Assembly (NCBI GenBank): GCA_029932605.1
Contig: JAOZPT010000003.1
Location: 1 to 42,490 of the forward strand
Direction: 5' to 3'
DNA from: Candidatus Zixiibacteriota bacterium
Lineage (GTDB): Bacteria > Zixibacteria > MSB-5A5 > UBA10806 > 4484-95
DNA length: 42,490 nucleotides
Shown here: positions 560-23,370 of the stretch, one piece after another
How positions within the stretch are numbered: position 1 is the stretch's first letter
Layout of the letters: each line of letters begins with the position of its first letter
The notes under the pieces: generated by a model
Told to the model about the DNA's origin: nothing
Databases searched by the model: none
What the model saw: only the letters and a program-made list of their open reading frames with translations
Translations under genes and position numbers: made by a program

Positions 560-955
560 GGAAAAATTAGCTCCGGAAGAGTTTTTAATGCCTTTGATGT
601 AGATAAGTGCCATAAACGGTATCTGGCCTTTCTGAGGAAATGGAGCAACAAATCTCCAGCAATCCAACGAATATCCTCTCGCTATGAAAACAACCTGTTT
701 CACTATTATGCCTTTCCAGAAGAGTGGCGGTATAGGTTACGGACCACTAACATGGCCGAAGGGTTCTTCAAACACCTAAAAACATTCCCGAGTCGTTACC
801 CAGGTTGTGTAAACAAAACACATGTTATCCAAATAGTTGGTACGTTCCTTAACGGGATAAGAGTCTATCGGCAAAGATATTATAAAACGTCAAGCTGTGG
901 GAGATACCTTGTTTGCAAGCCTTAACCAAATTTCAACAGAATTTGATTGCATTAC
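560..955 (+). mobile_element. Degenerate IS256 (Mutator)-family transposase C-terminal remnant plus probable right terminal repeat
   Basis: Manual translation of the frame containing 614 (no suitable start, so absent from the ORF track) gives RVFNAFDVDKCHKRYLAFLRKWSNKSPAIQ...LFHYYAFPEEWRYRLRTTNMAEGFFKHLK..., stop at 923-925. This matches the IS256 'F..KW...(Y)P...FY.FP.E.R..IRTTN..E' signature. It is followed by a 32-nt sequence (924-955) that recurs at 29100-29131. Confidence 0.75.
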
Positions 956-971
956 TATTGACCTAAATCAT

Positions 972-1000
972 TTGACATTAATATATACAATTTATAAATT
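972..1000 (+). promoter_or_regulatory. Putative sigma70 promoter of the HMG-CoA synthase operon
   Basis: TTGACA (972-977), 17-nt spacer, TAAATT (995-1000), about 65 nt upstream of the ATG at 1066. A GAGAGG SD precedes the ATG. Confidence 0.5.
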
Positions 1001-1065
1001 AATCTGTTTTGTTGATACTACATGCTAACTGTTTTGAAAACAACGTCTGAAAGAGAGGTTTCCTA

Positions 1066-2118
1066 ATGGTAGGAATAATCGGTTATGGAGCATATATCCC
1101 CCGGAACAGAATCAAGGTTGAGGAGATCGCCAAAATCTGGGGTGCTGATGCGCCTAGTTACAAAAGGGGTTTGATGCTCCAGGAGAAATCAGTTCCCAGT
1201 CCCGACCAGGATACTATTACCATGTCGGTTGAAGCCACAAAAAATGCTCTCAAACGTGCTGGTATCGATCCCCTGAAGATTGGAGCGGTTTATGTTGGTT
1301 CGGAATCCCATCCCTATGCTGTTAAACCGTCGGGAACAACCTTAGCCGAGGCGATTGGAGCGGTTCCCGATTGCCATTGTGCCGACTATGAGTTCGCCTG
1401 CAAAGCGGGTTCGGAGGGAATGTTTGTGGCGATGGGTCTTGTCAAAGCCGGCGAGATAGAATATGGTCTTGCAGTTGGCGCTGATACTTCACAAGGCGCA
1501 CCAGGTGATGCGCTTGAATATTCAGCCTCGGCCGGTGCAGCTGCTTTCATTTTTGGCAACGATAATATAGTTGCTGAATGCCATTATACACATTCATTCA
1601 TGACCGATACCCCTGATTTCTGGCGTCGAGAACACCAGTTTTACCCAAGGCATGCCTCACGATTCACTGGCGAACCGGCATATTTCAAACACATCATCGG
1701 CTGTGCCAAGGCGATAATGGCTAAAGCCGATATGAAACCAAGCGATTTCGACTATGTTGTGTTTCACCAGCCCAACGGTAAATTCCCAATGAATGTTGGT
1801 AAAAAACTCGGCTTTACCAAAGAACAGATTGAGCCTGGCTGGCTATGTCCGCTTTTGGGCAATACTTATTCCGGCTCATCGCCAATGGGCCTGACAGCCA
1901 CTCTGGATATCGCCAAACCGGGTGATTGGGTTCTGATGGTTTCCTATGGATCCGGCGCCGGAAGTGATGGTTTTATCTGGAAAGTCACAGAGCATATCAA
2001 CGAGGTCCGTGATAAAGCAATCAAAACCAGAACCATGCTTGAATCAGATCACAGAAAATACCTTGATTACGGCACCTACTCCAAGTTCAGGGGTAAAATC
2101 AAAAAATTAAGAGCATAA
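1066..2118 (+). CDS. Hydroxymethylglutaryl-CoA synthase, archaeal type
   Basis: 350 aa. 'GIIGYGAYIPRNRI', 'VGSESHPYAVKP', catalytic 'EFACKAG', 'FHQPNGKFP' and 'GNTYSG' are characteristic of the short archaeal HMGS. Adjacent to thiolase and DUF35. Confidence 0.93.
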   Translation: MVGIIGYGAYIPRNRIKVEEIAKIWGADAPSYKRGLMLQEKSVPSPDQDTITMSVEATKNALKRAGIDPLKIGAVYVGSESHPYAVKPSGTTLAEAIGAVPDCHCADYEFACKAGSEGMFVAMGLVKAGEIEYGLAVGADTSQGAPGDALEYSASAGAAAFIFGNDNIVAECHYTHSFMTDTPDFWRREHQFYPRHASRFTGEPAYFKHIIGCAKAIMAKADMKPSDFDYVVFHQPNGKFPMNVGKKLGFTKEQIEPGWLCPLLGNTYSGSSPMGLTATLDIAKPGDWVLMVSYGSGAGSDGFIWKVTEHINEVRDKAIKTRTMLESDHRKYLDYGTYSKFRGKIKKLRA

Positions 2119-2156
2119 TATACTTTTAACATGACAATTTTTCTGGAGGATAATAG

Positions 2157-3317
2157 ATGAGAGATGTTGCAGTAATAGGTATCGGGATGAACAAATGGGG
2201 CGAGCTCTGGGACAAGTCTATTCGTGATCTGGTTGCAGAAAGCGCCCTTCTGGCTCTCGATGATGCTGGCATAGACAAAGTTGACTCTATGTACATAGGA
2301 ACTATGTCGTCGGGATTATTCACCGACCAGGAACATCTGGCCTCAATCGGAGCAGATTATTCCGCACTTTGCCCGATACCTTGCACCAGAGTCGAATCAG
2401 CCTGTGCCTCTGGCGGACTGGCTGTTAGGATGGGATTTATGGATGTTGCCTCGGGGATGTCTGATATAGTCATGGCAGTCGGCGTGGAGAAGATGACCGA
2501 TGTAGATGGCAACGGAGCTACGTTTGCCCTGGCTACCGCTGCTGACCAGGAATATGAAGTTTTCAACGGTGTGACATTCCCCGGCTTATATGCGATGATG
2601 GCCAACCACCACATGTATAAACATGGCACAACTCGCGACCAGTTAGCGCAGGTAGCCGTAAAAAATCATCGAAACGGCAAGAAAAATCCACTGGCTCAAT
2701 TCAGGATGGAAATCACGATAGACCAGGTTAAAAATGCTGTCATGATTGCCGACCCGCTGACGATACTGGATTGCTCACCAATCACCGATGGCTCAGCCGC
2801 AGTTATTCTGTGCTCGATGGACAAAGCTAAAGAGCTCTGCAAGAAACGTATAGTTAAAATCATCGGCTCTGGTAGTGCTACCGATACGATTCAACTTGCT
2901 CAACGCGAGGATATTTCATTTATAAAATCGACTGCTGTAGCCGCAAAAAAGGCGTTCGAAATGGCAGGTAAAAAACCCTCTGATATAGACTTCATCGAGG
3001 TCCACGATTGTTTTACCATAGCAGAAATAATGACTATCGAAGCGCTGGGGTTTGTTGAAAAGGGTAAAGGCGGTCCAGCCACTGCCGACGGTTTAACCGC
3101 TATCGATGGCAAATTACCGGTTAACTCCAGCGGTGGCCTCAAATCCAAAGGCCATCCGGTGGGGGCTACAGGCACGGCTCAGATTGTCGAACTCACCAAG
3201 CAGATTCGAGGTGAGGCAGACAAAGGTCGACAGGTCAAAAATGCAAACCTGGGGTTGGCCCAGAACATGGGGGGAAGCGGTGCCAGCTCTGTTGTCCATA
3301 TTTTGGAGGGAATGTAG
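2157..3317 (+). CDS. Acetoacetyl-CoA thiolase (archaeal/SCP-x-like thiolase)
   Basis: 386 aa. '[10 protein letters not shown]' (catalytic Cys), 'EVHDCFT', '[14 protein letters not shown]'. Confidence 0.93.
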
Positions 3318-3319
3318 TT

Positions 3320-3712
3320 ATGTCATCACCTAAATACTGGAGAGAAATGCCTCAAAGATATCGCCTTGAGGCAATCAAATGTAAAAAATGTGGCAAGGTG
3401 TTGTTCCCACCAAGACTGGTATGTCCAGCTTGCCAATCAAGAGAGTTCGAACAAACGCGAATAAACAATACAGGTAAAATCGAGACATATACAGTAATCC
3501 GTGTTGCGCCCAGCACCTTTGTCGACCAAGCTCCTTATATCGTTGCCATCGTCAATCTGGAAGGTGGGGTTAAAATCCTCTGTCAGGTTGCTGATTGTGA
3601 GCTAAACGAGTTGAAAATCGGTATGCCCGTGAATTTGGAGTTCCGAAAAATCCAGCAAGAGGGCGAAGATGGCATTATTTGTTATGGCTATAAATGTATA
3701 CCGAAATTATAG
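3320..3712 (+). CDS. DUF35 family Zn-ribbon/OB-fold scaffold protein
   Basis: 130 aa. CKKC...CPAC Zn ribbon followed by an OB-fold-like region. Starts 2 nt after the thiolase stop. Confidence 0.9.
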   Translation: MSSPKYWREMPQRYRLEAIKCKKCGKVLFPPRLVCPACQSREFEQTRINNTGKIETYTVIRVAPSTFVDQAPYIVAIVNLEGGVKILCQVADCELNELKIGMPVNLEFRKIQQEGEDGIICYGYKCIPKL

Positions 3713-3741
3713 ATAATATATAAAGGAATTGAGGGCATTTC

Positions 3742-5349
3742 GTGTTTCAGATAGAATCGAAAATCAATACCAAGAGTAGCGAGTTCAAACAAAACGCAGA
3801 ACATTTGAAAAAAGAGACAGCCAAGCTCAAAGAACGATTAGCTGAAGTTGAACAGGGCGGTCCGCCTCGTGCCCGGGAAAAACATCTGAAAAGAGGTAAA
3901 CTTCTCACACGTGATCGGGTAAAAGGTCTTTTTGACAAAAACACTCCATTTTTGGAGCTTTCCAGTTTGGCTGCTTACGACATGTACAACAACGATGCCC
4001 CCTGTGCCGGTATTATAACCGGTATCGGCGTTGTACACGGCCGGGAGGTAATGGTTGTCGCCAATGATGCAACAGTTAAAGGCGGAACCTACTACCCGAT
4101 GACCATCAAAAAACATGTTCGTGCCCAGCAGATAGCTCTTGAAAACCGACTGCCGTGTGTCTATCTTGTAGATTCAGGCGGGGTGTTTTTGCCGTATCAA
4201 AAGGATGTATTTCCCGATGTAGGCCATTTTGGTAGTATCTTCTATAATCAGGCCAGATTATCGGCGGAAAACATCCCTCAAATAGCGGTGGTCATGGGTT
4301 CCTGCACAGCCGGTGGCGCATATGTGCCAGCAATGAGCGATGAAGCCGTTATAGTCCGCAAACAGGGAACGATTTTCATAGGAGGACCACCGCTGGTCAA
4401 GGCTGCAACCGGTGTCGATGTCACTGACGAAGAATTGGGCGGTGCCGATGTCCATTGCCGTATCTCAGGTGTTGCCGATCATTATGCCTTAAACGATGAG
4501 CACGCTTTGCAGATTACAAGGAACATAATACAATGTCTGGATGCCCCCAAAAAATTCGATATCGGTAGAACCGTACCGGTCGAGCCAAAGTACGACCCGA
4601 AAGAGCTTTATGGGGTTGTGCCAAAGGATATAAAAAAACCGTTCGATATACGGGAAGTCATTGCTCGCATTGTCGATAACAGCGAATTTCATGAGTTTAA
4701 GGAACTATATGGCCAGACAATTATCTGTGGCTTCGCTCGTATTATGGGTTATCCAGTAGGAATCCTTGCTAATAACGGTGTTCTGTTTTCCGAAAGTGCG
4801 CTCAAAGGGGCACATTTTATCGAACTATGTACTATACGAAAAATCCCTCTTCTATTTCTGCAGAACGTAACCGGATTCATAGTTGGAAAAGAGTATGAGC
4901 ATGGCGGTATCGCCCGCGATGGTGCCAAGATGGTCCATGCTGTTGCCAATGCCGATGTGCCCAAATTCACCATAATAATCGCTGGCTCTTATGGCGCAGG
5001 AAATTATGCTATGTGTGGTCGGGGGTATAATCCACGGTTTTTGTGGATGTGGCCAAGTGCTCGGATAAGCGTGATGGGTGGTGAACAAGCAGCTAATGTC
5101 CTTTTGACGGTGAGAATGAAGGGGCTGAAAGACAAGGGCAAGACCATGACCAAAAAAGAACAAGAAGAATTTATGGCTCCAATCCTGGAGAAATACGAGC
5201 ATGAGGGCTCACCATATTTCAGTACTGCTCGTATCTGGGATGATGGTATTATCGATCCGCTGGACACACGCGCTATCCTGGGGCTGGCCATTTCTGTTTC
5301 TTTGAATGCCGATATCCCCGACCAGCGTTATGGTGTTTTCAGGATGTGA
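3742..5349 (+). CDS. liuB: 3-methylcrotonyl-CoA carboxylase carboxyltransferase (beta) subunit
   Basis: 535 aa, GTG start. '[13 protein letters not shown]', '[18 protein letters not shown]', '[12 protein letters not shown]', '[11 protein letters not shown]' and C-terminal 'YGVFRM' are typical of MCC-beta. Confidence 0.9.
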
Positions 5350-5368
5350 TTAACAGCAGGGAATAACC

Positions 5369-6160
5369 ATGACAAAAGATTACCAGACGATAAAGCTTGA
5401 ATACCATGATCGAATCGCCAAGGTTACACTTAACCGCCCCCGGTTGAGAAACGCCTTCAACGATGTCATGATTTCTGAAATGACGGACGCCTTTAAAACT
5501 ATCAATAACCAAGACGACTTGAGGGTGGTGGTTTTAACAGGTGAGGGACAGAGTTTTTGTGCTGGCGCAGACCTTAACTGGATGAAGGATGTTATTAATT
5601 ATACTTACGAGGAAAACCTTCGGGACTCTCTGAACCTGTCTGAAATGTTCCATATTATGTTCAACTGCCCGTTGCCAACAATCGCCCGTGTAAATGGTGC
5701 CGCCATTGGTGGAGGGACCGGAATGGTGGCAGTCTGCGATATTGTTATCGCCTCCGAAAAAGCGGTTTTCAGCTTAAGCGAGGTCAAGCTTGGTTTGGTG
5801 CCGGCATGTATCTCCCCTTACGTCATCCGCCGTCTGGGAGACAAAAACTGCCGCGAGTTTTTTCTGACCGGTGAAAGGCTTACCGCCCAAAAAGCCTTAA
5901 CCGCTGGACTGGTCAATCAGGTAGTCCCGGATGAAATGCTCGACAAAGCGGTTAATGAAAGAGTAAAACAGCTCATCTCCAGCGGCCCTGATGCCCTTAC
6001 CTGGTGTAAACAGCTACTGCTGAATACGCCTACTATACCGGAAAAGGATGTGGGAAAATATACTGCCGAAATCATCACCAAGCTCAGGATGAGCGATGAG
6101 GGGCAGGAGGGGATGAAAGCCTTTTTTGAGAAAAGAAAACCGAAATGGTGTGAAAATTGA
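5369..6160 (+). CDS. liuC: Enoyl-CoA hydratase family, probable methylglutaconyl-CoA hydratase
   Basis: 263 aa crotonase: 'FCAGADLNWMK', 'GAAIGGGTG', 'SEVKLGLVPACISPYV', C-terminal 'EGQEGMKAFFEKRKPKW'. Syntenic with MCC genes. Confidence 0.85.
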   Translation: MTKDYQTIKLEYHDRIAKVTLNRPRLRNAFNDVMISEMTDAFKTINNQDDLRVVVLTGEGQSFCAGADLNWMKDVINYTYEENLRDSLNLSEMFHIMFNCPLPTIARVNGAAIGGGTGMVAVCDIVIASEKAVFSLSEVKLGLVPACISPYVIRRLGDKNCREFFLTGERLTAQKALTAGLVNQVVPDEMLDKAVNERVKQLISSGPDALTWCKQLLLNTPTIPEKDVGKYTAEIITKLRMSDEGQEGMKAFFEKRKPKWCEN

Positions 6161-6198
6161 ATATATTGGTGTTTGGATTTATATGATGGAGTAATTTT

Positions 6199-6702
6199 AT
6201 GTTTACAACAATCGAACAGTTCAAGGAGCTATGGAAAAAAGAATCTGAAAATACCAAAAAAATATTTTCGGCATTAACTAATGATTCCCTTAACAAGAAA
6301 GTAGCCGATGATCACCGGACTCTGGGACGAATGGCATGGCATATCGTGACGACTTTCCCGGAAATGATGAACCGCATCGGTCTTAAAGTTGAGGGGGTAA
6401 AAGAGAATGCCCCGCTACCAAAATCCGCAGACGAGATTACTAAGGCATACGAGAAGGTATCGACATCACTGATACAGCAGATCACTAAAAACTGGAATGA
6501 CGATACTCTTCAGGTTGAGGATGATATGTATGGTGAAAAATATAAACGTGGCGATTCCCTCTATATGTTACTAAGCCACGAAACCCATCACCGTGCCCAG
6601 ATGACAGTGTTAATGCGTCAGGCTGGCCTTAAAGTGCCGGGTATATATGGGCCAGCGAAAGAGGAATGGTCTCAATACGGTATGAAGGAACCAGAGGTTT
6701 AA
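6199..6702 (+). CDS. DinB/YfiT superfamily protein
   Basis: 167 aa. 'RTLGRMAWHI' and 'HETHHRAQMTVLMRQAG' give the His triad of DinB-family helical bundles. Confidence 0.85.
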   Translation: MFTTIEQFKELWKKESENTKKIFSALTNDSLNKKVADDHRTLGRMAWHIVTTFPEMMNRIGLKVEGVKENAPLPKSADEITKAYEKVSTSLIQQITKNWNDDTLQVEDDMYGEKYKRGDSLYMLLSHETHHRAQMTVLMRQAGLKVPGIYGPAKEEWSQYGMKEPEV

Positions 6703-6750
6703 GGTTGATTACAAGTCTGGGTCGTATTTGTTGATAAAGTAACAGATAAC

Positions 6751-8274
6751 ATGTTCAAAAAAATACTAATAGCCAATAGGGGTGAGATATCGGTAAGGGT
6801 GATACGTGCTTGCCGCGAGTTGGGAATCACCTCGGTAGCCGTCTATTCGACGGTCGACAGGGATTCTATGCATGTTCAATTAGCCGATGAAGCAGTCTGT
6901 ATTGGTGAGGCATCTCCTGAAAAGAGTTATTTAAACATCGATGCCATCATCAATGCGGCCAGGGAGACTAACGCCGAGGCTATCCATCCCGGCTACGGTT
7001 TCCTTGCCGAAAACCACCTTTTTGCAGAACGTTGCGAAACCGAAGGAATAGCCTTTATCGGACCCCATTCAAAAGCATTGAAACTGGTGGGTGATAAGGT
7101 TGCCTCACGTAAGGTGACCGAAGCTGTCGGCATACCTATCATCCCCGGTATGAAGGGTAAAAGCACCGATGTGGATGAGTGCATGGTGGAGGCTGAGAAA
7201 ATCGGTTTCCCGGTCTTATTGAAAGCCTCGGCTGGTGGTGGTGGTAAAGGAATGAGGGTTATCTATTCAAAGGATGAACTTAAAGACGCCGTTGAGGCTG
7301 GTATGCGAGAGGCAAAATCAGCTTTTGGCGACCCCTCGGTTTATCTTGAAAAATACATCGAACAGCCCCGGCATATCGAGTTCCAGATACTGGCGGATAA
7401 ATACGGCAATGCCATTCATCTTTTCGAAAGGGAATGTTCTATACAGAGAAGACATCAGAAAATTATAGAGGAAAGCCCCTCTACTGCCCTCGATGATGAC
7501 ATGAGAAAACGTATGGGCGATACTGCCCTTAAGGTTGTCAGGGTATCGGAATATTCGAACGCTGGCACGGTTGAGTTTTTAGTTGACAAAGATAAAAACT
7601 TCTATTTTCTCGAGGTTAATGCTCGCCTCCAGGTTGAACATCCGGTAACAGAACTGGTAACCGGTATCGACCTGGTTCACTCCCAGCTACGCATAGCCGC
7701 CGGAGAAAAACTCTGGTTGAAACAACATCAATTACACCAGAACGGCCACTCTATTGAATGCAGGATTTATGCTGAAGACCCTCAGCACAATTTTTTACCC
7801 TCAGCAGGGAAAATTCTGTTCATGAAAGAACCCTCGGGACCAGGGATACGTCACGATTGCGGTATATATTCGGGGTATAATGTTTCAGTTTACTATGACC
7901 CAATTCTCTCCAAGCTGATAGCGTGGGCACCAACACGTGAAACATGTTGTAAACGGGTTGCTTCCGCTCTTGCGGATTTCCCTATACTGGGAATTAAAAC
8001 CAACATCGAATTTTTGCATGACGTAATCACTCATCCTGAATTTTCAGCAGGTAACACTTTCACTGACTTCATCAGTATAAATATGGCTGACTGGCGGCCG
8101 AAATCTCTGGATCAATCCGGTTTGGCCAATGGAATTTTAGATGAGGCTCTTATAGTGGCCGCTGTTTTCTCAAGCTCTATAAAAAAAAGCAAAACCCTTC
8201 CAACTAAAACCGAGAGTATTCCCTCACCCTGGCAGACACTCGGGGAATGGCGAATCGGCATTGGATTAGATTAA
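6751..8274 (+). CDS. Biotin carboxylase subunit (MCC-alpha N-terminal part)
   Basis: 507 aa. 'KKILIANRGEI', 'HPGYGFLAEN', 'KASAGGGGKGMR', 'RECSIQRRHQK', 'EVNARLQVEHPVTE'. No biotinyl domain. Confidence 0.93.
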   Translation: MFKKILIANRGEISVRVIRACRELGITSVAVYSTVDRDSMHVQLADEAVCIGEASPEKSYLNIDAIINAARETNAEAIHPGYGFLAENHLFAERCETEGIAFIGPHSKALKLVGDKVASRKVTEAVGIPIIPGMKGKSTDVDECMVEAEKIGFPVLLKASAGGGGKGMRVIYSKDELKDAVEAGMREAKSAFGDPSVYLEKYIEQPRHIEFQILADKYGNAIHLFERECSIQRRHQKIIEESPSTALDDDMRKRMGDTALKVVRVSEYSNAGTVEFLVDKDKNFYFLEVNARLQVEHPVTELVTGIDLVHSQLRIAAGEKLWLKQHQLHQNGHSIECRIYAEDPQHNFLPSAGKILFMKEPSGPGIRHDCGIYSGYNVSVYYDPILSKLIAWAPTRETCCKRVASALADFPILGIKTNIEFLHDVITHPEFSAGNTFTDFISINMADWRPKSLDQSGLANGILDEALIVAAVFSSSIKKSKTLPTKTESIPSPWQTLGEWRIGIGLD

Positions 8275-8301
8275 AAGAATAAAAGCTACCGGAGATTTAA
8301 A

Positions 8302-8823
8302 ATGGAGATGGAATATTTAGTCGAAGGAAAAACATATACGGTAAAAATAGATGCCGATGAAAACAGGCAGGAGAAGGCTGATTGCTTTAAAGCCACCATT
8401 GGGGAAAAACAGTACCAGTTTAATGTTGCCCCAATTTCCGACAATTGTTTTTCTTTGCTTTATGATAACAACAGTCGAATAGCTTATGTGGCTGAAGCAG
8501 AGGGACAAATATATGTCCATATTGATGGCATAACGATAAATCTCGAAGACGCCGTTTCTCAACAGAAAACGTTTTCCAGAGACAGCCTGGAGTTCGGAGT
8601 TAAAGATGAGGTCACCACATCAATGCCGGGTAAAGTAGTCAAAGTTCTTGTTAAAGAGGGTGACAAAGTGCAGGCTAAACAACCTCTGGTGATAGTTGAA
8701 TCGATGAAGATGGAAAACGAGATAAAGTCTCTGACAGATGGTTTTGTTAAATCGATACATTTTGGTCCGGGTGACCTTGTCGAACCCGGCCAACCCATCA
8801 TCAAACTTGAAGTTGACGATTAA
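8302..8823 (+). CDS. Biotin carboxyl carrier protein with N-terminal BT-like region
   Basis: 173 aa. Biotinylation motif 'VESMKMENEI' and 'MPGKVVKVLV'. Has its own GGAG SD. Confidence 0.9.
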   Translation: MEMEYLVEGKTYTVKIDADENRQEKADCFKATIGEKQYQFNVAPISDNCFSLLYDNNSRIAYVAEAEGQIYVHIDGITINLEDAVSQQKTFSRDSLEFGVKDEVTTSMPGKVVKVLVKEGDKVQAKQPLVIVESMKMENEIKSLTDGFVKSIHFGPGDLVEPGQPIIKLEVDD

Positions 8824-8992
8824 ATCCAACATTTATACTTTAACAAACCCAAATATCTTATAACCATCAAAAACTATTGACTTTGTGTATGTATATGGAT
8901 TATTTTTGTAAAGTGAGAAAGTAAAGGTATGAAAACATGGCCCGTAATGTTGCCTTCAAGTTATTTTCAATTGCAACAGGGAGTGATGACTA

Positions 8993-9490
8993 TTGAGCAG
9001 TGATAAACAGGCACAAACTGTAAAAAAGCACAAGTTAAATTTCGCTTTCCGCGAAAAATTAGGCACCTTTGCCGAAGGTTTCAGACATAATTATTGTTAC
9101 CAGTGTGGGGCTTGTGTGGCTGACTGTCCGGCAAGCAACTATTCTAAGGAATTCAATCCACGTCTTATCATTCTCAAAGCTCTTCTTGGTTTCGAGGATG
9201 AGCTTATCAAACCCGATTCGGAGATATGGAACTGCACCAACTGCTATACCTGCTCGGAAAGATGTCCGCAGGATGTTCGACCTGTCGATGTCATCATTGC
9301 CCTGAAAAACATGTGTTATAGTGAGGGCAAGGCGCCGGAACTAATAGGCCACATTTCCGATACTGTCCTAGTAACCGGCGTCACTACCAAAATTACCTCA
9401 CTGTCTGAAAGACGCCGGCAGGAGCTTGGACTTCCCCCTATTAAAGGTTATCCGGTTGATGAAATCAAAAAGATTATCGAGGCTGATTGA
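8993..9490 (+). CDS. hdrC: Heterodisulfide reductase subunit C (2x[4Fe-4S])
   Basis: 'CYQCGACVADCP' and 'WNCTNCYTCSERCPQDV'. TTG start with a GGGAG SD. Directly upstream of HdrB. Confidence 0.88.
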   Translation: MSSDKQAQTVKKHKLNFAFREKLGTFAEGFRHNYCYQCGACVADCPASNYSKEFNPRLIILKALLGFEDELIKPDSEIWNCTNCYTCSERCPQDVRPVDVIIALKNMCYSEGKAPELIGHISDTVLVTGVTTKITSLSERRRQELGLPPIKGYPVDEIKKIIEAD

Positions 9491-9491
9491 T

Positions 9492-10382
9492 ATGACTTAT
9501 AAATCCATTGGAAAATATATTCCATTTTTTGGTTGTATGATGACCACCAAGTATCCATGGTTCGAGGCGGCTGTGCGTAAGACGGCAGCAAAAATCGGTA
9601 TGGAATTAATTGACATCGATGGTTTCACCTGCTGTCCTGACCCAATCTATTACCAGGCGCGCGACAAGATGGAATGGTACACAATCGCCGCCAGAAATAT
9701 ATCGCTGGCGGAAGACCTTGGTTATGATTTAATTACAACCTGTTCCGGTTGCACTGCTACCTTATCCGAGGTCAATTTAGCCTTAAAAGAAGACCCTGAG
9801 CTTAAAGCAAAAGTCAATGAACGCTTAAAGAAAATTGGCCGTGAGTTCAAAGGCTCGATAAATGTCCGCCATGCTGTTACGGTCATACGTGATGACTTCG
9901 GTTTCGAGCAGGTAACCAAGACTGTTACCCGTCCGCTGGAGGGGCTGAAAGTGGCTGTTCACTATGGTTGTCACCTTTTGAAACCGTCGCGGGTGATGCG
10001 TGTCGATGACCCCAACCACCCAACAATACTTGAAAACCTCCTCAAAGCCATCGGTGCCGAGCCAATCCATCATGATAAGACCATGTTATGCTGTGGCAAA
10101 GCCTGTATATCTGATGCTATACCGGAACAAATGATAATGGATATACTGGAAACGATAAAAAGCAGAGAAGCTGACTGTATGGGACTCATCTGCCCGACAT
10201 GTTTTGACCAATTCGATATAAGACAGATCATTCTGGGACGAAAACATAAAAAGAAACTCGATGTGCCAATCATCTATTATTTTCAGCTACTTGGGCTGGC
10301 ACAGGGGCTCAACACCAAAGATGTCGGCCTGCAAATGCATAAAGTAAAAGCCGACCAGATATTCGAAAAAGTATTAGCGTAA
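9492..10382 (+). CDS. hdrB: Heterodisulfide reductase subunit B (CCG domains)
   Basis: 'FFGC', 'TCCPDP', 'CSGC', 'HYGCH', 'CCGKA', 'CPTC', 'PIIYYFQLLGLA'. Likely start is the ATG at 9492, 1 nt after the hdrC stop, rather than 9426. Confidence 0.9.
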   Translation: MTYKSIGKYIPFFGCMMTTKYPWFEAAVRKTAAKIGMELIDIDGFTCCPDPIYYQARDKMEWYTIAARNISLAEDLGYDLITTCSGCTATLSEVNLALKEDPELKAKVNERLKKIGREFKGSINVRHAVTVIRDDFGFEQVTKTVTRPLEGLKVAVHYGCHLLKPSRVMRVDDPNHPTILENLLKAIGAEPIHHDKTMLCCGKACISDAIPEQMIMDILETIKSREADCMGLICPTCFDQFDIRQIILGRKHKKKLDVPIIYYFQLLGLAQGLNTKDVGLQMHKVKADQIFEKVLA

Positions 10383-10385
10383 ATT

Positions 10386-10412
10386 GTAGGTCAAAGCCCC
10401 TGCGGTTTTGAC
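10386..10412. repeat. GTAG-preceded palindrome (REP-like / possible bidirectional terminator) between converging hdrB and adh
   Basis: GTAG + GTCAAAGCC-CCTGC-GGTTTTGAC, a 9-bp stem with one G-U pair. Confidence 0.45.
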
Positions 10413-10426
10413 TGGAAGCTATAAAT

Positions 10427-11431
10427 TCAAATTTTCAGAACGGCTGCACCCTTGATTTTCCCCTTGCGCAGATTGTCCAGAGCCTTGTTTGCCTGCTCAA
10501 GGGGGAAAACCTGGACCTTTGTTTTTACAGGAACTTCAGGGGCGATTGCAAGTAATTCCTCACCATCCTGACGGGTCAGGTTGGCCACAGAACGGACAAC
10601 TCGCTCCTCCCAGAGCAGGTGATATGGAAATGATGGAATGTCGCTCATGTAGATACCAGCACAGACAACTGTGCCACCCTTCTTAGTCGCTTTTAAGGCT
10701 GCCGGTAAGAGCGGGCCAACCGGAGCAAAAATTATGGCTGCATCAAGCTTATCTGGAGGCAATTTTGTCGAATCGCCTGCCCATACAGCTCCAAGGCTGT
10801 AGGCAAACTCCTGACCGGTAACGTCGCCTGGTCTTGTGAATGCGTAGATACGTTTCCCCTGATATATGGCTATCTGGGCAATCACATGAGCGGAAGCTCC
10901 AAATCCATATAGCCCCAGGTCCTCTACACCTTCACCTGCCATCCGGTACGATCGATACCCGATTAACCCCGCACATAAAAGAGGTGCAGCTTCAACATCG
11001 CTGTATTTCTCCGGTATGGGAAAACAGTATCGTTGGTCTGCTACAGCATATTCAGCAAAACCCCCATCAATGGTATAACCGGTAAAAAGTGCATTTTCGC
11101 ACAGGTTTTCCTGTCCTCTCTTACAATAATAGCATTTGCCATCTGTATAACCCAACCATGGTACCCCGATCCGATCTTTTACATTAAATTTTTCGACATG
11201 ACTTCCAGTTTGAACGACAGTACCTATGATCTCGTGTCCGGGTATCAGGTGAGGTTTTGGTTTACTGAGATCACCATCGACTATATGTAGGTCTGTGCGG
11301 CAAACACCACAGGCATGGATTCTTATCAATACCTGTTCTGGCCCTGGTTCTGGAATAGTTATCTCCATAAGCTGAAGGGGTTGCCTTGCTTTTTCTAACA
11401 CCATTGCTCGCATCTTTTCTGGAATTTTCAT
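10427..11431 (-). CDS. Zinc-dependent alcohol dehydrogenase (MDR family)
   Basis: 334 aa. 'CGVCRTDLH', 'PGHEIIG', structural-Zn 'DGKCYYC...NLC', 'LGLYGFGASA'. Confidence 0.92.
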   Translation of the reverse strand: MKIPEKMRAMVLEKARQPLQLMEITIPEPGPEQVLIRIHACGVCRTDLHIVDGDLSKPKPHLIPGHEIIGTVVQTGSHVEKFNVKDRIGVPWLGYTDGKCYYCKRGQENLCENALFTGYTIDGGFAEYAVADQRYCFPIPEKYSDVEAAPLLCAGLIGYRSYRMAGEGVEDLGLYGFGASAHVIAQIAIYQGKRIYAFTRPGDVTGQEFAYSLGAVWAGDSTKLPPDKLDAAIIFAPVGPLLPAALKATKKGGTVVCAGIYMSDIPSFPYHLLWEERVVRSVANLTRQDGEELLAIAPEVPVKTKVQVFPLEQANKALDNLRKGKIKGAAVLKI

Positions 11432-11529
11432 TTTTACCCAGCCTGGTTAATTTAACAGTTATCAGTATCTAACCGTACTCATATAGTTAATTATAATATC
11501 ATGATCTATTTATAAATTCAACAGAATTG

Positions 11530-11556
11530 ATAGGTTGGGTTCCGAGGAAACCCGAC
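11530..11556. repeat. REP-like hairpin / probable terminator downstream of the ECF S-component gene
   Basis: ATAG + GTTGGGTT-CCGAGGA-AACCCGAC, an 8-bp stem with one G-U pair, about 10 nt past the stop at 11566. Confidence 0.45.
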
Positions 11557-11565
11557 AACCTTCAC

Positions 11566-12126
11566 TTAATTCTTGGGATTCTCTTGGTCTTTCTTTACCC
11601 ACCAATTGGCGATAATCGGCAGGAGTATGATCTGTCCCAGCGCCGCAAACAGACCGGGCAACAGTGCCGCCTTAAAATATTGCATATAATTACCGCTTGC
11701 GGCAAAACCCAAGTAAACGGTCAGAGCAAATGCAACTCTTCCGATTATGAGGGCAGGAATAACCGACATGAATGGATTGAAGAGAAGCTTTTCACGCAAG
11801 AAGCCGGCGACGAAACCATAGGTAAACAGTTCGACCGTCATGGCGGGCAGAATTGCAGGTAAGGGCATGCCGGATATAAGGTAACTTAATGATGGAGAGA
11901 GCAACCCCACCAGCGCACCGCTTCTCCAACCGAAGACCAAGCCTGCCAGGATAACAGGCCAGTGCATAGGTAGAAGAATTCTTACCGGAGCGCCTGATAA
12001 GTGAGCCACAGCGGGCAACATAACAGCGACTCCAATAAGGATTACTTGGAAAACCAAAGATTTTGTTCCCCAGAACACCAAAGTGATGTTTTTTACTGAT
12101 ATGGAAGGCTGATTTTTGTTATACAT
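11566..12126 (-). CDS. ECF transporter S component (substrate unknown)
   Basis: 186 aa with about 6 hydrophobic segments. 'LLPMHWPVILAGLVFGWRSGALVGLLSP' and 'GMP...PAMTVEL' are typical of ECF S components. Confidence 0.8.
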   Translation of the reverse strand: MYNKNQPSISVKNITLVFWGTKSLVFQVILIGVAVMLPAVAHLSGAPVRILLPMHWPVILAGLVFGWRSGALVGLLSPSLSYLISGMPLPAILPAMTVELFTYGFVAGFLREKLLFNPFMSVIPALIIGRVAFALTVYLGFAASGNYMQYFKAALLPGLFAALGQIILLPIIANWWVKKDQENPKN

Positions 12127-12345
12127 TTTTGTATCTTCCTTGATGGTATTCTTTAAAATGGCTCAACAACAGATCCTTTGCAAATTAAAAGGATTTTTTA
12201 ATCGCTTAGTACAATATATTAGTCTTTATTTAGTTACGTCAAGTGTTTTCAATATAAAAAAAATGATGTAAATTTAATTGTTAAAATTGTATCAGTTGAA
12301 ACTTAAAATTTTTACAGGTATATCCAGAGGAAAAAAGATACACCC

Positions 12346-12585
12346 GTGAAACCATTAAGACTTGACAGTAAAAATGTAGGTTATGTGAAGTTAGCCCCTG
12401 AGGCTGGACAGAAAAGGTTAGAATATCTGGCAAGGTTTTGTTATAGTTTCAATCAAGATGGCAGTATTTCTTTAGAATGGGATGGGCGTGATCATAAAGG
12501 TGAAGATGTGAGCAGTGGGGTATACTTTATATCATTACAAGCACAGAATGGAGGTGATGTCAAGAAGGTAATCTTATTGAGGTAG
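12346..12585 (+). pseudogene. Orphan C-terminal sorting (T9SS-A/FlgD-Ig-like) domain fragment
   Basis: The C-terminal half 'LEWDGRDHKGEDVSSGVYFISLQAQNGGDVKKVILLR' parallels the C-termini of 29205-32129 and 32513-34327. The N-terminal NxPNPFN motif and any passenger domain or signal peptide are missing. Confidence 0.55.
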
Positions 12586-12758
12586 AGTACTATTTTAAAC
12601 CTTAAACTACTTCCCTACCGGTTTAGCAGGGGGGAGACGGCGGACACTATTGGAACGGCATTTGGGGCAGGTTCTTTCAGTGATATTATCCGGGTCATAC
12701 ATACCTTTATATTCATGTCCACATTTGAGGCATTTAAAGGTAGTTTCTCTTGCAGGCA

Positions 12759-15230
12759 TCAGGCTTTCACCTCTTCATTTTTTAAAGCTTTTTTCTTTTT
12801 GCTCTTGGCCTCTTCCTCGGTTAAGACTTTCATTGTATGCTCGATCTCTTCTTTAGTAACGGCTTTGACCATATCTTCCAGTTCGCGCATGACCTTGGCG
12901 AATTTCTGGCCCTCGGCGGCGGATATCCATTCAAGCTGCAACCTTTCGGGACGGATACCCAGTTTTTCAAGTTTGTTCCACATACGGTCCATTCGTTTCT
13001 GTGTCCACTGCACAGCGCTGATGTAATGGCAATCGCTGAAATGACATCCGGATACAAGCACCATTGGCGCACCCAACTTGAAAGCATGCATTACGAATTT
13101 CTCGTCGACTCTGCCGGAGCACATTGTCCTTATCAGTCTGCATGTGGGAGGATACTGCAATCTTGAGGTTCCAGCCATATCACCACCGGCATAACTGCAC
13201 CAGTTGCAGGCGAATGTCACAAGATGTTTGTGAGGCTCTACGGCCAGCAGAGCTTCGATTTGGGCCATAATCTGCTCATCGCGGAAATGCCGCATGGTGA
13301 TAGCATCCTGTTGACACTCCGAGGCGCAGGCACCACATCCGGCGCAGGCAGCCTGGATGACAATAGGTGCTTTCTTGGCTTTCCGATCAGGGGCTATGAT
13401 AGCATTATATGGACAGACCCGCGCACAGACACCACAATAGTTACATTTGTCAGGATCGATCTGAGAGGTGATAGCCTCGACCCTGGTTTTGCCGGCGTTG
13501 AGTAGAATGCTGGCTCTGGCCGCTGCAGCACCTGCCTGGGTGACGCTGTCTTTGATATCTTTGGGCGATTCTACACATCCAGCTATGAAAATACCTTTAG
13601 TAGGAGCATCAACCGGCTTAAGCTTGGGGTGAGACTCCATAACAAAACCATCAGAGGTTGTTGATAATGTCAGAAGCCTTTTGATAGTCTCACCATCGCG
13701 ACGAGGTATAACCCCTTGTGACAGAACTAGCATCTCAAGCTCATGTTTTTCCAACTTGCCAGTGGTCGTGTTTTCAACAGTTAAGATAAGGTTCTTGGTT
13801 TGAGGATCTTCTGTGACCTCACCCGGGATACCCCTTATATATTTAACACCCTCTTCCTTACTTCGCATATAAAGATCTTCGAAACCTTTACCAAAGGCAC
13901 GGATATCCATGTAGAAAACCTCAGCCTGAACTCCAGGGTAATGGTCGCACAGCAGAAGAGTATCTTTAACGGTGTTCATACAGCAGATGTTACTGCAATA
14001 TGGGTTACCACGGCCATCCCGCGAGCGGGAACCAACACATTGTATAAAGCCGATGCTCTGGGGAATCTTACGGTCAGTTGGTCGAATGAAATGCCCCTCG
14101 GTTGGGCCTCCAGCGCAGATTAACCGCTCAAACTCCATACTGGTGATAACGTTCTCGAAACGAGTGTAGCCATATTCATCGTATTCCGTAGGATCATATA
14201 CATCCATACCGGTAGCAACGATTACCACACCTACCTCGACGTTCACCAGTTTATCCTGGTCATCGTAGTTGATACATTTTTTCTCGCACGCCTCAAAGCA
14301 TTTGCCACAAGCAATAGGATTGTTGCCGAGGCAGTTTTCCATATTCAGTATATAAGATGACGGTACTGCTTGAGGAAAGGGTAAATATATAGCCTTACGT
14401 GAGGAGAATCCTTGTTGGTATTCGTCAGGCACCGTTACCGGGCAGACTTTGGCGCATTCGTCACAACTGGTGCACTCGTTGGGATCTACATAGCGAGCCT
14501 TCTTGCGTATTGCCACGTTGAAATTGCCCACGTAACCGGTAACTGATTCGACCTCGCTGTAGGTCATTAACTCGATATTTGGATGTCGACCGACATCCAT
14601 CATTTTGGGACCGAGTATTCATATGGAACAATCCATTGTCGGGTAGGTTTTGTCGATTGCAGCCATAATCCCACCGATTGTGGGTTCTTTCTCGACCAGA
14701 TAGACTTTGTGCCCACCGTCTGCTAAATCGAGGGCTGCCTGGATACCTGAGATGCCTCCGCCGATAACCAGTGCTGCCTTGGTAACCGGTACTTCCGCTT
14801 CCTGTTGTGGTTCCAAAAAACGAGCCCTGGCAACGCCACTTCTAACAAGGTCTTTGGCCTTCTCGGTAGCTGCTTCCTTTTCAGTTTGATGAACCCAGCT
14901 ACAGTGCTCACGAATATTTACCATTTCGAACAGATACGGGTTTAATCCTGCATCAGCTACACATTCACGGAATGTCGGCTCGTGGATTTTTGGAGTGCAG
15001 GAGGCTACCACAACACGATTGAGGTTATGTTCGGTTATAGCCTTTTTAATCTCATTTTGTCCAGGGTCAGCGCATGTATACTTATTCTGGACGACAACCA
15101 CAACATCATCCAGTGTCTCAGCGTATTTACTGACAGCAGTACAATCAATGGTGCCGGCGATATTCAGTCCGCACTCACAGACGAACACACCAATGCGCAA
15201 ATCCCCAGGTTTTTTTAATTCAACTGCCAT
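12759..15230 (-). CDS. hdrA: Selenocysteine-containing HdrA fused to C-terminal MvhD (about 823 aa)
   Basis: ORFs 14619-15251 and 12759-14603 are in frame across TGA 14619-14621: ...[27 protein letters not shown]... Contains the HdrA N-domain '[10 protein letters not shown]', FAD motif 'GGGISG', a ferredoxin insert, 'CVGSR...CSNICC', a C-terminal ferredoxin, then MvhD '[12 protein letters not shown]...MCSGRV...GCHFSDCHY'. Likely start is the ATG at 15230 (GGGAG SD). Confidence 0.9.
14570..14618 (-). promoter_or_regulatory. Bacterial SECIS-like hairpin 3' of UGA in hdrA-mvhD
   Basis: mRNA after UGA: upper stem UGGAUGUC-[GGUC]-GACAUCCA (8 bp) with the loop starting 27 nt after UGA. Lower stem ACUCGGU/AUCGAGU. 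Confidence 0.8.
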
Positions 15231-15314: not shown

Positions 15315-16457
15315 TCAACCAGTTAAGGCTGAAGCAACTAAGTTCACGAAATCGGTTAATTTTATACCGACTTTTTCTGTTTCCTCTCCACATTCAGCAC
15401 ACCGAAAATGAATCTGGCATTTCGGGCAGGCGGTTACTAATGTATTTGCACCTGTATCCTTAGCCTCAATCAGCCTGCTGTTTTGAATCTGCTTGGAGGT
15501 AGTATCGCAGTTCATCCAGTTGGTGGTGCCACAACATATTGCGCCTTGCTTGTTGTGAGGCATCTCGAGGAACTTTATCCCCGGAATAGACAACATCGCC
15601 TCACGTGGTTGCTGGTAAATACCCATGTGTCTGCCCAAACGGCAAGGGTCCTGGAAAGTAACTTCCATATCAATGGTATTGAATTTTAATTTGCCGATGT
15701 TTTCGGCAACAACCTCGGCGATATGTTTAACCTTGAAGTTTACACTACCAAATCGTTCAGGATAGAGCTTTTTTAATACAAGAGCGCATTCCGGGCAAGC
15801 TGTCACTACAGTTTTGGCGCCAGTTTGCTCTATCTCCTTTAAATTTATTTGCCCAAGCTCATCAAACTGTCTTAACTGACCCAGCCAGTAAAGGTCATGG
15901 CCACAACATCGCTCGTTGTCCATGACCACTGGTTCGATACCGAGATAATTTAGAATTTTCACCGTATCCTGGGCAATTGAAATTGGTGAAAAATCGAAAT
16001 CCTTGGCAAAATAGTTTTCGTAATATGGTAAACATCCAACAAAATAAAGAACTTCACCTTTGGTTTTAACCTTTAGGTTGTCGTTTATCCAGCCAGTACG
16101 GCTTTGTTTGAGATTAGGTGAAGAGAGCATATCCATGATGTAGTGAAAGGTACCGCCATGTGATGGGTTACCCCATTTCCCCTGGCTGTATGCCTCAGCC
16201 CGAATATCCCGCATATATTCGGAATACCTGACATCCACAGGACAACGCTGTGAACACAGCTGACAGGTTAAGCAGGACCATAAGAGATTGTCGGAGATAA
16301 GTTCATTGCCGCCATAGAAAAGACCCTCGGCTACCATCCGTCGGGGGGAATAGCTGTTATTGAAGCGAGAAATGGGACATACACTGGTGCATTTTCCACA
16401 TTCAAGGCAGTAAAAGGCGCTGCTTTTCTTTATTTTTTCAGCAACATTTTTCATCAT
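15315..16457 (-). CDS. HdrD-like (Fe-S)-binding protein: 2x[4Fe-4S] plus two CCG domains
   Basis: 'CLECGKCTSVCP', 'CLTCQLCSQRCP', 'FVGC', 'CCGHD', 'ACPEC', 'QDPCRLGR', 'CCGTT', 'ACPKC'. Confidence 0.85.
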   Translation of the reverse strand: MMKNVAEKIKKSSAFYCLECGKCTSVCPISRFNNSYSPRRMVAEGLFYGGNELISDNLLWSCLTCQLCSQRCPVDVRYSEYMRDIRAEAYSQGKWGNPSHGGTFHYIMDMLSSPNLKQSRTGWINDNLKVKTKGEVLYFVGCLPYYENYFAKDFDFSPISIAQDTVKILNYLGIEPVVMDNERCCGHDLYWLGQLRQFDELGQINLKEIEQTGAKTVVTACPECALVLKKLYPERFGSVNFKVKHIAEVVAENIGKLKFNTIDMEVTFQDPCRLGRHMGIYQQPREAMLSIPGIKFLEMPHNKQGAICCGTTNWMNCDTTSKQIQNSRLIEAKDTGANTLVTACPKCQIHFRCAECGEETEKVGIKLTDFVNLVASALTG

Positions 16458-16921
16458 TTATTAAATTTTGGTTTATGATTTAATGGGCTTGGTCCCAGAG
16501 CGGTTATCTGTTCGGTAAATTCGTTAATGACCTGAGCCCAACGTGGTCCCTCTGCCGCTGAAATCCATTCCAGGCGTATGCGTTTCTCATCCAACCCCAA
16601 AGTCTTCACTAACTCTTTAGTTTTTTCAAATTGGTCTACAGCCTTATAGTTGCCAAATATATAATGGCAATCACCAAAATGACAGCCTGAAACGAGAACA
16701 CCATCTGCCCCAAGTTTCAGGGCTTTAAGTATAAAAGCGGGAGTGACCCGACCAGAACACATGGTTCGAATAATTCTAAAATTGGGCGAATGTTGAATCC
16801 TGTTTACACCAGCGGTGTCAGCACCTGCATAACTGCACCAGTTGCAGGCAAAAGCGACAATATTGGGCACGAATTTTTTATTCGTTGATTTCTTTTTAGT
16901 CTTTGGTTTTTTCACAGGCAT
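16454..16921 (-). CDS. mvhD: MvhD-type [2Fe-2S] subunit
   Basis: '[12 protein letters not shown]', 'MCSGRV', '[17 protein letters not shown]', '[10 protein letters not shown]'. Overlaps the next gene by 4 nt. Confidence 0.9.
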   Translation of the reverse strand: MPVKKPKTKKKSTNKKFVPNIVAFACNWCSYAGADTAGVNRIQHSPNFRIIRTMCSGRVTPAFILKALKLGADGVLVSGCHFGDCHYIFGNYKAVDQFEKTKELVKTLGLDEKRIRLEWISAAEGPRWAQVINEFTEQITALGPSPLNHKPKFNK

Positions 16922-16924
16922 ATA

Positions 16925-22899: not shown

Positions 22900-22960
22900 A
22901 GAAAATCTCCGCTTTTGAGCCATCGGTAGAGGTTTAATTTTTACCAATCTACCATAATGG

Positions 22961-22978: not shown

Positions 22979-23370
22979 AAACACAAAAAATTCCCTTAGT
23001 AAGTATTATTGAATATGATTTTAAGAAATTCCCTCGAAGATCGATTAAGTAACTTTTCTATCACTTTATTAAAATCAAGAACTATTCCCTTAACCAGATT
23101 AACGTCCCAAAACACATTACCAACCAAACCTAAAGAATTTAATATATTCAAACATAAATGTCCAACAAAATTTGAAAAAATATTAAAGCCTGATATATAA
23201 TGTCCATACACAAAACCTTCTTAGTATATGCTACTTATGCACATAACAACATCTTGTTGTTTAACTCGGGCTATTGCTACTTTTTCTTTATTGCGTGCAA
23301 TTAGCAACGGTTGTATATTCTAAAGAGGAGATGGTTTACGGTCACAAAATTTTAATTGATATTTAAGAGA

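Follow-up and report, generated by a model that had tools for sequence, protein, structure and literature searches.

Bacterial leucine breakdown is known from gene clusters such as liuRABCDE of Pseudomonas, which is said to bring together the genes of the beta subunit of 3-methylcrotonyl-CoA carboxylase (MCC), 3-methylglutaconyl-CoA hydratase and biotin carboxylase. 3-Hydroxy-3-methylglutaryl-CoA (HMG-CoA) lyase is taught as the obligatory end of this pathway, and HMG-CoA synthase (HMGS) as a one-way biosynthetic enzyme. The window analyzed in this work, that is, the whole stretch of 42,490 nucleotides at the start of a 95-kb contig of a Candidatus Zixiibacteriota bacterium (genome of 2.53 Mb in 101 contigs, 99.96% complete), holds at positions 1066-8823 an operon that shares these three genes with the liu-type clusters, but that also encodes a thiolase, an HMGS and a DUF35 protein of the archaeal type (hereafter, the trio). 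Judging from the sequences, the operon may serve a lyase-free breakdown of leucine or isovalerate, in which the thiolase/HMGS/DUF35 complex would run in reverse to yield three acetyl-CoA, a proposal in which we place about even confidence.

The same three genes are found together in Desulfococcus multivorans, which is reported to have a cluster induced by isovalerate and to form HmgL on this substrate, that is, the classical lyase route under anoxic conditions (PMC5109826). Canonical, lyase-bearing clusters encode a carboxyltransferase (CT, the MCC beta subunit) 64-70% identical to that of the operon, followed by the same enoyl-CoA hydratase (ECH) ortholog. Compared to liu-type clusters, the operon described here has no HMG-CoA lyase, either in the cluster or in the genome, and no isovaleryl-CoA dehydrogenase (IVD) in the cluster; its MCC alpha subunit is split into a biotin carboxylase (BC) and a biotin carboxyl carrier protein (BCCP), and the trio is present.

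With the archaeal complex (6ESQ), the operon shares three adjacent genes, structure matches of 477, 384 and 132 bits, the motifs around the catalytic residues, the HDxF motif and the zinc cysteines. It differs in its bacterial host, in the operon shared with MCC and in the proposed reversal of flux; moreover, 102 of the 122 HMGS-bearing Zixibacteria have no HMG-CoA reductase (HMGR) to take the product. Myxobacteria reportedly reach isovaleryl-CoA by the Aib route (MvaS, LiuC, AibA/B and AibC), which likewise links HMG-CoA, 3-methylglutaconyl-CoA and 3-methylcrotonyl-CoA, and shares its HMGS and hydratase with leucine catabolism. In contrast, the genome studied here lacks AibA/B and has a complete ATP-dependent MCC instead, and a zinc-dependent alcohol dehydrogenase (Zn-ADH) family gene close to the operon does not recur in related loci. 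Finally, a reversed citrate synthase is said to operate in the reversed oxidative tricarboxylic acid (roTCA) cycle of Desulfurella acetivorans, an organism that itself carries the trio-MCC operon. The likeness is conceptual, as in both cases an acyl-CoA-hydrolysing condensing enzyme would be reversed and a thioester saved with respect to a lyase, but the enzyme families are different and the reversal of HMGS is only proposed here. Full-text literature searches, which covered open-access papers, found no description of such an operon, and a paper on repurposed HMGS/ACAT/DUF35 complexes mentions neither MCC nor leucine (PMC12960953). New for this stretch are the DinB insertion, the accompanying mevalonate operon without HMGS, the division of the lyases into two classes and the counts obtained within the phylum.

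Gene Content of the Operon

Eight open reading frames (ORFs) lie in tandem on the + strand, with gaps of 38, 2, 29, 19, 38, 48 and 27 nt. A preliminary description of the stretch had listed eight co-oriented genes with gaps of 2-48 nt, which agrees exactly with the ORF list in coordinates and gaps, and the gene identities given there were borne out by Pfam, NCBIfam and solved-structure scores:

1066..2118, + strand: HMG-CoA synthase, archaeal type, 350 aa (TIGR00748, NF003274)
2157..3317, + strand: SCP2-type acetoacetyl-CoA thiolase, 386 aa (NF004720)
3320..3712, + strand: DUF35 scaffold protein, 130 aa (Pfam zf-ChsH2, zinc ribbon, and OB_ChsH2_C, OB fold)
3742..5349, + strand: MCC beta subunit (CT), 535 aa, GTG start (solved-structure scores)
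5369..6160, + strand: crotonase-family hydratase (ECH), probable 3-methylglutaconyl-CoA hydratase, 263 aa (ECH_1, 216 bits)
6199..6702, + strand: DinB-family protein, 167 aa (Pfam DinB, 103 bits)
6751..8274, + strand: BC, ATP-grasp, 507 aa (Biotin_carb_N, CPSase_L_D2, Biotin_carb_C; accC)
8302..8823, + strand: BCCP, 173 aa (Biotin_lipoyl domain at residues 103-169)

The HMGS scored 535 bits with TIGR00748 (cut-off 353) and 542 bits with NF003274, also above the cut-off, and its best solved structure is the Methanothermococcus HMGS 6esq_I (477 bits, against 205-216 bits for PhlA). In the alignment with 6esq_I the motifs GSESHPYAVKP, EFACKAG, VFHQPNGKF and GNTYSG are identical, and these we take to surround the catalytic Glu, Cys and His of HMGS. 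The thiolase passed NF004720 with 544 bits (cut-off 420) and reached 539 bits with NF053570, the model of the Methanothermococcus thiolase, which is under its cut-off of 600. Its solved-structure scores were 394 bits with 7yvy and 384 bits with 6esq_A, against 206 bits with BbsB, and it retains the motifs ACASGG and HDxF (EVHDCF). The DUF35 protein, with 6esq_E as best solved structure (131.6 bits, against 69 for PhlB), retains the four zinc-ribbon cysteines (CKKCG...CPAC). Altogether, adjacency, structure matches and motifs identify the trio as a predicted thiolase/HMGS/DUF35 complex of the archaeal type. No second copy of any of the three genes was found in the genome; for HMGS, tblastn returned the self match only, and a TIGR01835 search of the genome likewise found the operon HMGS alone. 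An archaeal origin of the stretch was considered and rejected, since the CT is 83% identical to that of Zixibacteria metagenome-assembled genomes (MAGs); the host being a bacterium, "archaeal" names the type of enzyme and not the organism.

As for the carboxylase, solved-structure scores place the CT as a predicted MCC beta subunit, outside the clades of geranyl-CoA (GCC) and of propionyl-CoA carboxylases (PCC): it reached 748 bits with the P. aeruginosa MCC beta subunit and 742 bits with the human one, against 472 bits with the GCC beta subunit and at most 290 bits with PCCs. These scores exclude a geranyl- or propionyl-CoA carboxylase as the identity of the CT, and thereby answer a doubt about its substrate that the preliminary description had raised. 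In PMC4673880, the substrate pocket is described as closed by Phe191 in P. aeruginosa MCC beta and opened by Gly162 in GCC. The CT aligns with 3u9r_B without gaps and, by our reading of aligned positions 150-215, has Phe or Tyr, and nowhere Gly, wherever the P. aeruginosa protein has Phe, although the numbering of Phe191 itself could not be mapped. BC scored 635 bits with accC (cut-off 626.5), and the translated BCCP holds the biotinylation motif ESMKM. The two are encoded by separate genes 27 nt apart, and not as one BC-BT-BCCP polypeptide, a split of the MCC alpha subunit that is also kept in relatives. A second carboxylase of the PCC/Mmd type (CT, BC and BCCP) is encoded on contig C5, its CT being 33% identical to the operon CT; paralogs of the operon BC are found on the same contig (51% identity) and on contig C21 (AccC, 50%).

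The best NCBIfam models of the crotonase were PRK07468 and PRK05674 (gamma-carboxygeranoyl-CoA hydratase), both with scores under the cut-off. Its ortholog lies 3' of CT in 45 of the 66 loci whose downstream flank is 1500 nt or longer, lyase-bearing canonical clusters included, and it is mainly for this position that we regard the protein as a probable 3-methylglutaconyl-CoA hydratase. The DinB-family protein has no NCBIfam match, and its gene has no match in 80 related loci and is missing from the operon of the five nearest relatives, in which the other seven genes stand in identical order. DinB is a passenger seen only in this genome, and the conserved operon consists of the other seven genes.

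Conservation of the Gene Order

The 80 loci were recovered from other genomes with the CT protein as query. The trio lies directly upstream of CT, on the same strand, in 29 of them, and labels of linked loci include Zixibacteria, Ignavibacteria, Aminicenantes, WOR-3, Stahlbacteria and the cultured Desulfurella acetivorans. Five further loci (L008, L011, L015, L016 and L017, labelled Kapaibacteria, Ignavibacteria, Bacteroidetes/Chlorobi group and "Hyphomicrobiales") have the trio on the opposite strand, about 7 kb away. More distant are the 35 loci L048-L082 (Chloroflexota, Melainabacteria, Planctomycetota, two Asgard archaea and others), of which none has the trio and 19 have ECH and BC together, in the form CT-ECH-BC(-BCCP). 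All close relatives have BC beside CT, as do 36 of the 56 loci whose downstream flank reaches 4 kb or more. The genes 3' of BCCP had no match in any of the 80 loci.

Within the phylum, 151 Zixibacteria genomes were sampled, one per species and including the genome studied here. HMGS was found in 122, an MCC-type CT in 139 and HMGR in 20. HMGS and CT occur together in 121 genomes, CT without HMGS in 18, and HMGS without CT in a single one, whose assembly consists of about 440 contigs. Across this sample, HMGS tracks MCC and not the mevalonate pathway. CT lies 3' of HMGS, on the same strand and within 15 kb, in 83 of the 121 genomes, and within 5 kb in 61 of those. This arrangement is not due to chance. 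The preliminary description would have regarded the two modules as a chance juxtaposition if the order were not conserved and the dehydrogenase and lyase genes (liuA and liuE) lay elsewhere; the order is kept in those 83 genomes, and liuE is absent. In the genus g44, HMGS is missing in three of the four sampled genomes, and the CT gene has one in-frame TAA in two of those three (G102 and G199), a pattern that may represent co-loss of the trio and MCC modules.

Outlets for HMG-CoA

Lyases were identified with the HMG-CoA lyase model NF004283 (cut-off 246 bits), and those of Zixibacteria fall into two classes. Class 1, the canonical lyase (355-407 bits), is present in eight genomes and lies within about 5 kb of CT in seven; class 2, lyase-like (268-287 bits), is present in 16 genomes and does not lie near CT. 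In the 83 linked genomes class 1 never occurs, class 2 occurs in nine and HMGR in 17, whereas 58 have neither an HMGR nor a lyase match. The canonical lyase adjoins MCC where there is no trio or where the trio lies elsewhere. In other lineages, among 16 genomes with a trio-less CT-ECH-BC cluster, 13 hold a lyase of 400-432 bits (the exceptions being a KSB1 genome and two Asgard archaea), and a lyase lies within the locus in 13 trio-less loci, as opposed to none of the 34 trio loci (29 co-oriented and five divergent). One operon-bearing Zixibacteria genome (G002, with locus L004) carries an HMG-CoA-lyase-like gene broken into four frames of 88-152 aa (C16:4329-5201), which looks like a decaying lyase. 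In the MAGs of the two Asgard archaea (L077 and L080), with BC-BCCP-CT-ECH clusters and no HMG-CoA lyase match, leucine-derived HMG-CoA could feed the mevalonate pathway directly.

HMGR was absent from 66 of the 83 linked Zixibacteria. A sister family (f2) whose HMGS is 80-88% identical to that of the operon has HMGR in none of six genomes. Among the 34 operon-bearing genomes of other lineages, a full HMGR match was found in one, the closest relative of the genome studied here, and weak partial matches in three; the complete D. acetivorans genome has none. In most carriers, which have neither HMGR nor lyase, the only known way out for HMG-CoA leads through the other module, and the operon must then connect 3-methylcrotonyl-CoA and acetyl-CoA. 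The two modules are coupled through HMG-CoA.

We then examined the other pathway genes of this genome. PF00682 and NF004283 had no match in it, and tblastn with the Ktedonosporobacter lyase found none; the lack of any HMGL-like domain means that neither HMG-CoA lyase nor LeuA/CimA is encoded. Similarly, the CoA-transferase family PF01144 has no match in the genome, and so AibA/B are missing. Neither an HMG-CoA lyase nor an acyl-CoA dehydrogenase (ACAD) is encoded within 1066-8823, and no IVD in the window. Three ACADs found elsewhere in the genome all best match SCAD/Bcd, the short-chain or bifurcating butyryl type, and share 35-37% identity with the IVD-like ACAD encoded in the Desulfurella operon. 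The lack of lyase and IVD noted in the preliminary description extends to the whole, nearly complete genome, and of the further genes named there HMGR, mevalonate kinase and genes of the methylerythritol phosphate (MEP) pathway were found, while liuA, liuE, LeuA and aibAB were not. A ketol-acid reductoisomerase (KARI) gene is present and no IlvD was found in the genome; with both IlvD and LeuA lacking, the gene content suggests an organism with a general auxotrophy for branched-chain amino acids, which has to import leucine. Directly 5' of one of the ACADs, on contig C74 (L095:859-2473), lies a gene for a B12-binding acyl-CoA mutase small subunit.

Proposed Lyase-Free Breakdown of Leucine

In the route that we propose, leucine or isovalerate would be converted to 3-methylcrotonyl-CoA, which the split MCC (CT, BC and BCCP) would carboxylate at the expense of ATP to 3-methylglutaconyl-CoA, and the crotonase would hydrate the latter to HMG-CoA. 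The complex, running in reverse, would then convert HMG-CoA and CoA to acetoacetyl-CoA and acetyl-CoA, followed by thiolysis. The net reaction would be HMG-CoA + 2 CoA to 3 acetyl-CoA, saving the thioester that the lyase route loses as free acetoacetate, with the reversal of HMGS pulled by thiolysis inside the complex. Thiolase condensation is strongly endergonic and the HMGS reaction comparably exergonic, which would place the summed reaction near equilibrium; presumably, the complex is hence able to run forwards too.

The direction of flux, and with it the reversal of HMGS, is what we infer from five lines of evidence, and we think it is mainly catabolic: the ATP-grasp carboxylase is retained, catabolic genes neighbour the operon in relatives, an IVD-like gene and electron transfer flavoprotein (ETF) genes stand inside the Desulfurella operon, the canonical lyase is replaced, and the genome appears to be that of a general branched-chain amino-acid auxotroph. 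In D. acetivorans A63, the genes run in one direction in the order sigma-54 activator, ACAD, trio, crotonase, ETF beta/alpha, CT and BC, followed by more acyl-CoA genes. Among solved structures, this ACAD best matches isovaleryl-CoA dehydrogenases (299 and 296 bits), with 256 bits for human IVD. In Zixibacteria and Ignavibacteria loci, genes for a methylmalonyl-CoA mutase, an epimerase-like protein, a Buk-like kinase and a Leu/Glu-type dehydrogenase lie upstream. Downstream follow beta-oxidation genes, which encode a 3-hydroxyacyl-CoA dehydrogenase, a thiolase-like protein, a crotonase and two ACADs; these ACADs share 62% and 60% identity with a tandem pair on contig C32 of the genome studied here.

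Other features were observed in these loci. In D. acetivorans (L031) a citrate synthase gene lies, with the sigma-54 activator, immediately 5' of the operon (696-2009 and 3744-13102). A gene of the AtuA (acyclic terpene utilisation) family stands between DUF35 and CT at L043:8120-9835, and L046 has a gap of similar size in that place. The Kapaibacteria locus L008 carries an IcmF-like fused mutase between the ACADs and CT.

Several observations weigh against a lyase-free catabolic role. HMGS is generally regarded as irreversible, and none of the three ACADs of this genome is IVD-like. HMGS and CT lie on separate contigs in 32 of the 121 Zixibacteria genomes that hold both, and six further cases are otherwise placed; the genomes are MAGs, fragmented and incomplete, in which absence is not proof. 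Besides the nine linked Zixibacteria, lyase-like genes of the second class occur outside the phylum, in six of the 29 strict operon genomes (266-288 bits) and in all five divergent-trio genomes (274-299 bits); should they prove to be genuine lyases, the replacement would not be a clean one. No lyase was found either in 14 of the 18 Zixibacteria that have CT but not HMGS. Moreover, in this genome and 19 others the trio holds the sole HMGS beside a mevalonate operon, and must there work forwards, unless leucine-derived HMG-CoA feeds the operon of HMGR and mevalonate kinase (MVK). Taking both sides together, that a reversible complex has replaced HMG-CoA lyase in many, mostly uncultured phyla and in Desulfurella, being bidirectional in this Zixibacteria lineage, is a broader proposal that we make more tentatively, with slightly less than even confidence.

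Possible Supply of a Mevalonate Pathway

The operon could instead mainly supply HMG-CoA to a mevalonate pathway in this organism, both from acetyl-CoA, through the trio, and from leucine, through MCC and the hydratase, which we consider unlikely. On contig C19 lies a mevalonate operon whose genes overlap at their ends (L093:4158-9479); it encodes a type 2 IPP isomerase (IDI2), an HMGR-MVK fusion, diphosphomevalonate decarboxylase (MDD) and a PMK-like kinase, and has no HMGS of its own. The fusion is a single 766-aa ORF, with a class II HMGR at residues 18-403 and mevalonate kinase at 459-737; among the 20 HMGR-bearing Zixibacteria, the frame that holds HMGR is about 770-800 aa long in 18, and 599 and 629 aa in the remaining two. 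We know of no such fusion described before, no search aimed at it having been made. All 20 of these genomes also hold HMGS, linked to CT in 17. In every one of them the operon HMGS is the sole gene of at least 66 bits with TIGR01835, the other matches, of 25-31 bits, being taken for FabH-like genes, and no bacterial HMGS of the mvaS type was found in any of the 20. In the genome studied here, furthermore, no lyase would compete for HMG-CoA.

A function of this kind does explain the branch point here, but it does not account for both modules sharing one operon, and the operon is kept in most genomes that lack HMGR: 66 of the 83 linked Zixibacteria, the sister family with a near-identical operon, and 33 of the 34 operon genomes elsewhere, in which no full match was found. 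Mevalonate is not the sole isoprenoid route either, as DXR, IspG and IspH are also encoded (contigs C62 and C69, with IspG and IspH adjoining); such a combination of MEP genes with a mevalonate operon is unusual in a 2.5-Mb genome. The suggestion in the preliminary description that two routes converge on HMG-CoA to feed mevalonate therefore survives as a possible side branch in this organism, and not as the general role of the operon. Contig C99 (L002:1486-2847, - strand) encodes a 453-aa distant relative of HMGR (PF00368, 34.8 bits); it was considered as a hidden reductase and rejected, as it reached only 42 bits with TIGR00533 and similar weak matches occur in three of the 34 operon genomes.

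Possible Synthesis of Isovaleryl-CoA and Other Unlikely Readings

Equally unlikely, in our view, is an anabolic route from acetyl-CoA through HMG-CoA, 3-methylglutaconyl-CoA and 3-methylcrotonyl-CoA to isovaleryl-CoA, for iso-branched lipids or leucine. Here the trio would run forwards, the hydratase would act as a dehydratase and MCC would work backwards, yielding ATP, as an alternative to the myxobacterial Aib route. The co-occurrence data are compatible with both directions, the trio is evidently capable of running forwards in the 20 HMGR genomes, and this genome has no LeuA/CimA. In addition, its ACADs are nearest to the bifurcating butyryl-CoA dehydrogenase 5ol2, an enoyl-CoA reducer. However, a decarboxylase would not need BC, and the ATP-grasp BC is kept beside CT in the loci and close relatives described above. 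Myxobacteria reportedly use a dedicated decarboxylase for this step rather than a reversed MCC; no gene of the AibA/B family is present in this genome, and the nearby Zn-ADH gene does not recur in related loci. The absence of LeuA does not point to a leucine-specific gap, since IlvD is absent too, which fits a general branched-chain auxotrophy. The Desulfurella operon, with its IVD-like gene and ETF, also speaks against synthesis; the D. acetivorans genome has HMGL-domain matches of 514-537 aa, which are taken for LeuA-like by size and score only. Such a pathway had been put forward in the preliminary description, and its topology stands, as acetyl-CoA and methylcrotonyl-CoA are joined via HMG-CoA, but its direction is probably wrong, the evidence favouring catabolism.

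A very improbable alternative is that the trio has given up HMG-CoA for different chemistry, like the Friedel-Crafts acylases PhlACB and MucABC, and that its adjacency to MCC reflects another product. According to PMC12960953, homologs of HMGS, ACAT and DUF35 have been repurposed in Pseudomonas and Streptococcus, and the acylases lack the HDxF motif. The thiolase of the operon keeps this motif, its HMGS is much closer to the archaeal enzyme than to PhlA (477 against 205-216 bits) and passes both NCBIfam HMGS equivalog models, and in 20 genomes the trio holds the sole HMGS beside a mevalonate operon. Least credible of all is a chance or merely regulatory neighbourhood of two independent modules, since the separate contigs in 32 of 121 Zixibacteria and the five loci with a divergent trio stand against gaps of 2-48 nt here, a linkage kept in 83 of 121 genomes and in several phyla, HMGS without CT in only one of 122 genomes, and the lack, without coupling, of a known outlet for HMG-CoA in 58 of the 83 linked genomes.

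Implications of the Proposed Lyase-Free Pathway End

Lyase-free breakdown of leucine or isovalerate would have consequences beyond this genome. A widespread MCC-synthase operon in genomes with neither lyase nor HMGR implies an undescribed pathway end, which could raise the ATP yield of leucine or isovalerate oxidation in energy-limited anaerobes. The way in which HMGS genes are read in metagenomes would also change, as the gene is no sign of a mevalonate pathway in 102 of 122 Zixibacteria. A direct test is open in D. acetivorans A63, a cultured organism whose operon includes an IVD-like gene and ETF.

Surroundings of the Operon

The best sigma-70-like match within 800-10600 (10 of 12 positions) precedes the operon:

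972..1000, + strand: candidate promoter-like site, TTGACA-17-TAAATT, 66 nt 5' of the HMGS start

Promoter-like sites are not enriched over shuffled sequences in the region (20 found and 18.7 expected), and terminator-like sites in a scan of the operon region were likewise not above shuffles. Immediately 5' of the operon and close to the contig end, an open frame without a start codon (482-922, + strand) matches positions 279-347 of a Mutator-family transposase model with 30.8 bits, and represents a transposase remnant.

Directly 3' of the operon lies an HdrC/HdrB-like pair (8993-10382, + strand), followed by an HdrA2/MvhD-like protein of 614 aa (12759-14603, - strand) and by a second Hdr-like set, consisting of a CCG/4Fe-4S protein, FlpD/MvhD and a 954-aa HdrA-like flavoprotein (15315-19789, - strand). 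The HdrC/HdrB-like, Zn-ADH, ECF-S and DinB genes were considered as pathway members and rejected, as none of them is found in the 80 loci or the five relatives. Further downstream, 11 kb from the operon, is a set for a four-subunit 2-oxoacid:ferredoxin oxidoreductase (20036-22947, - strand), the alpha subunit of which scored 555 bits with PRK08659, above the cut-off, and an additional gamma subunit is encoded at 23356-23940 on the + strand. This enzyme could perhaps form isovaleryl-CoA from 2-oxoisocaproate.

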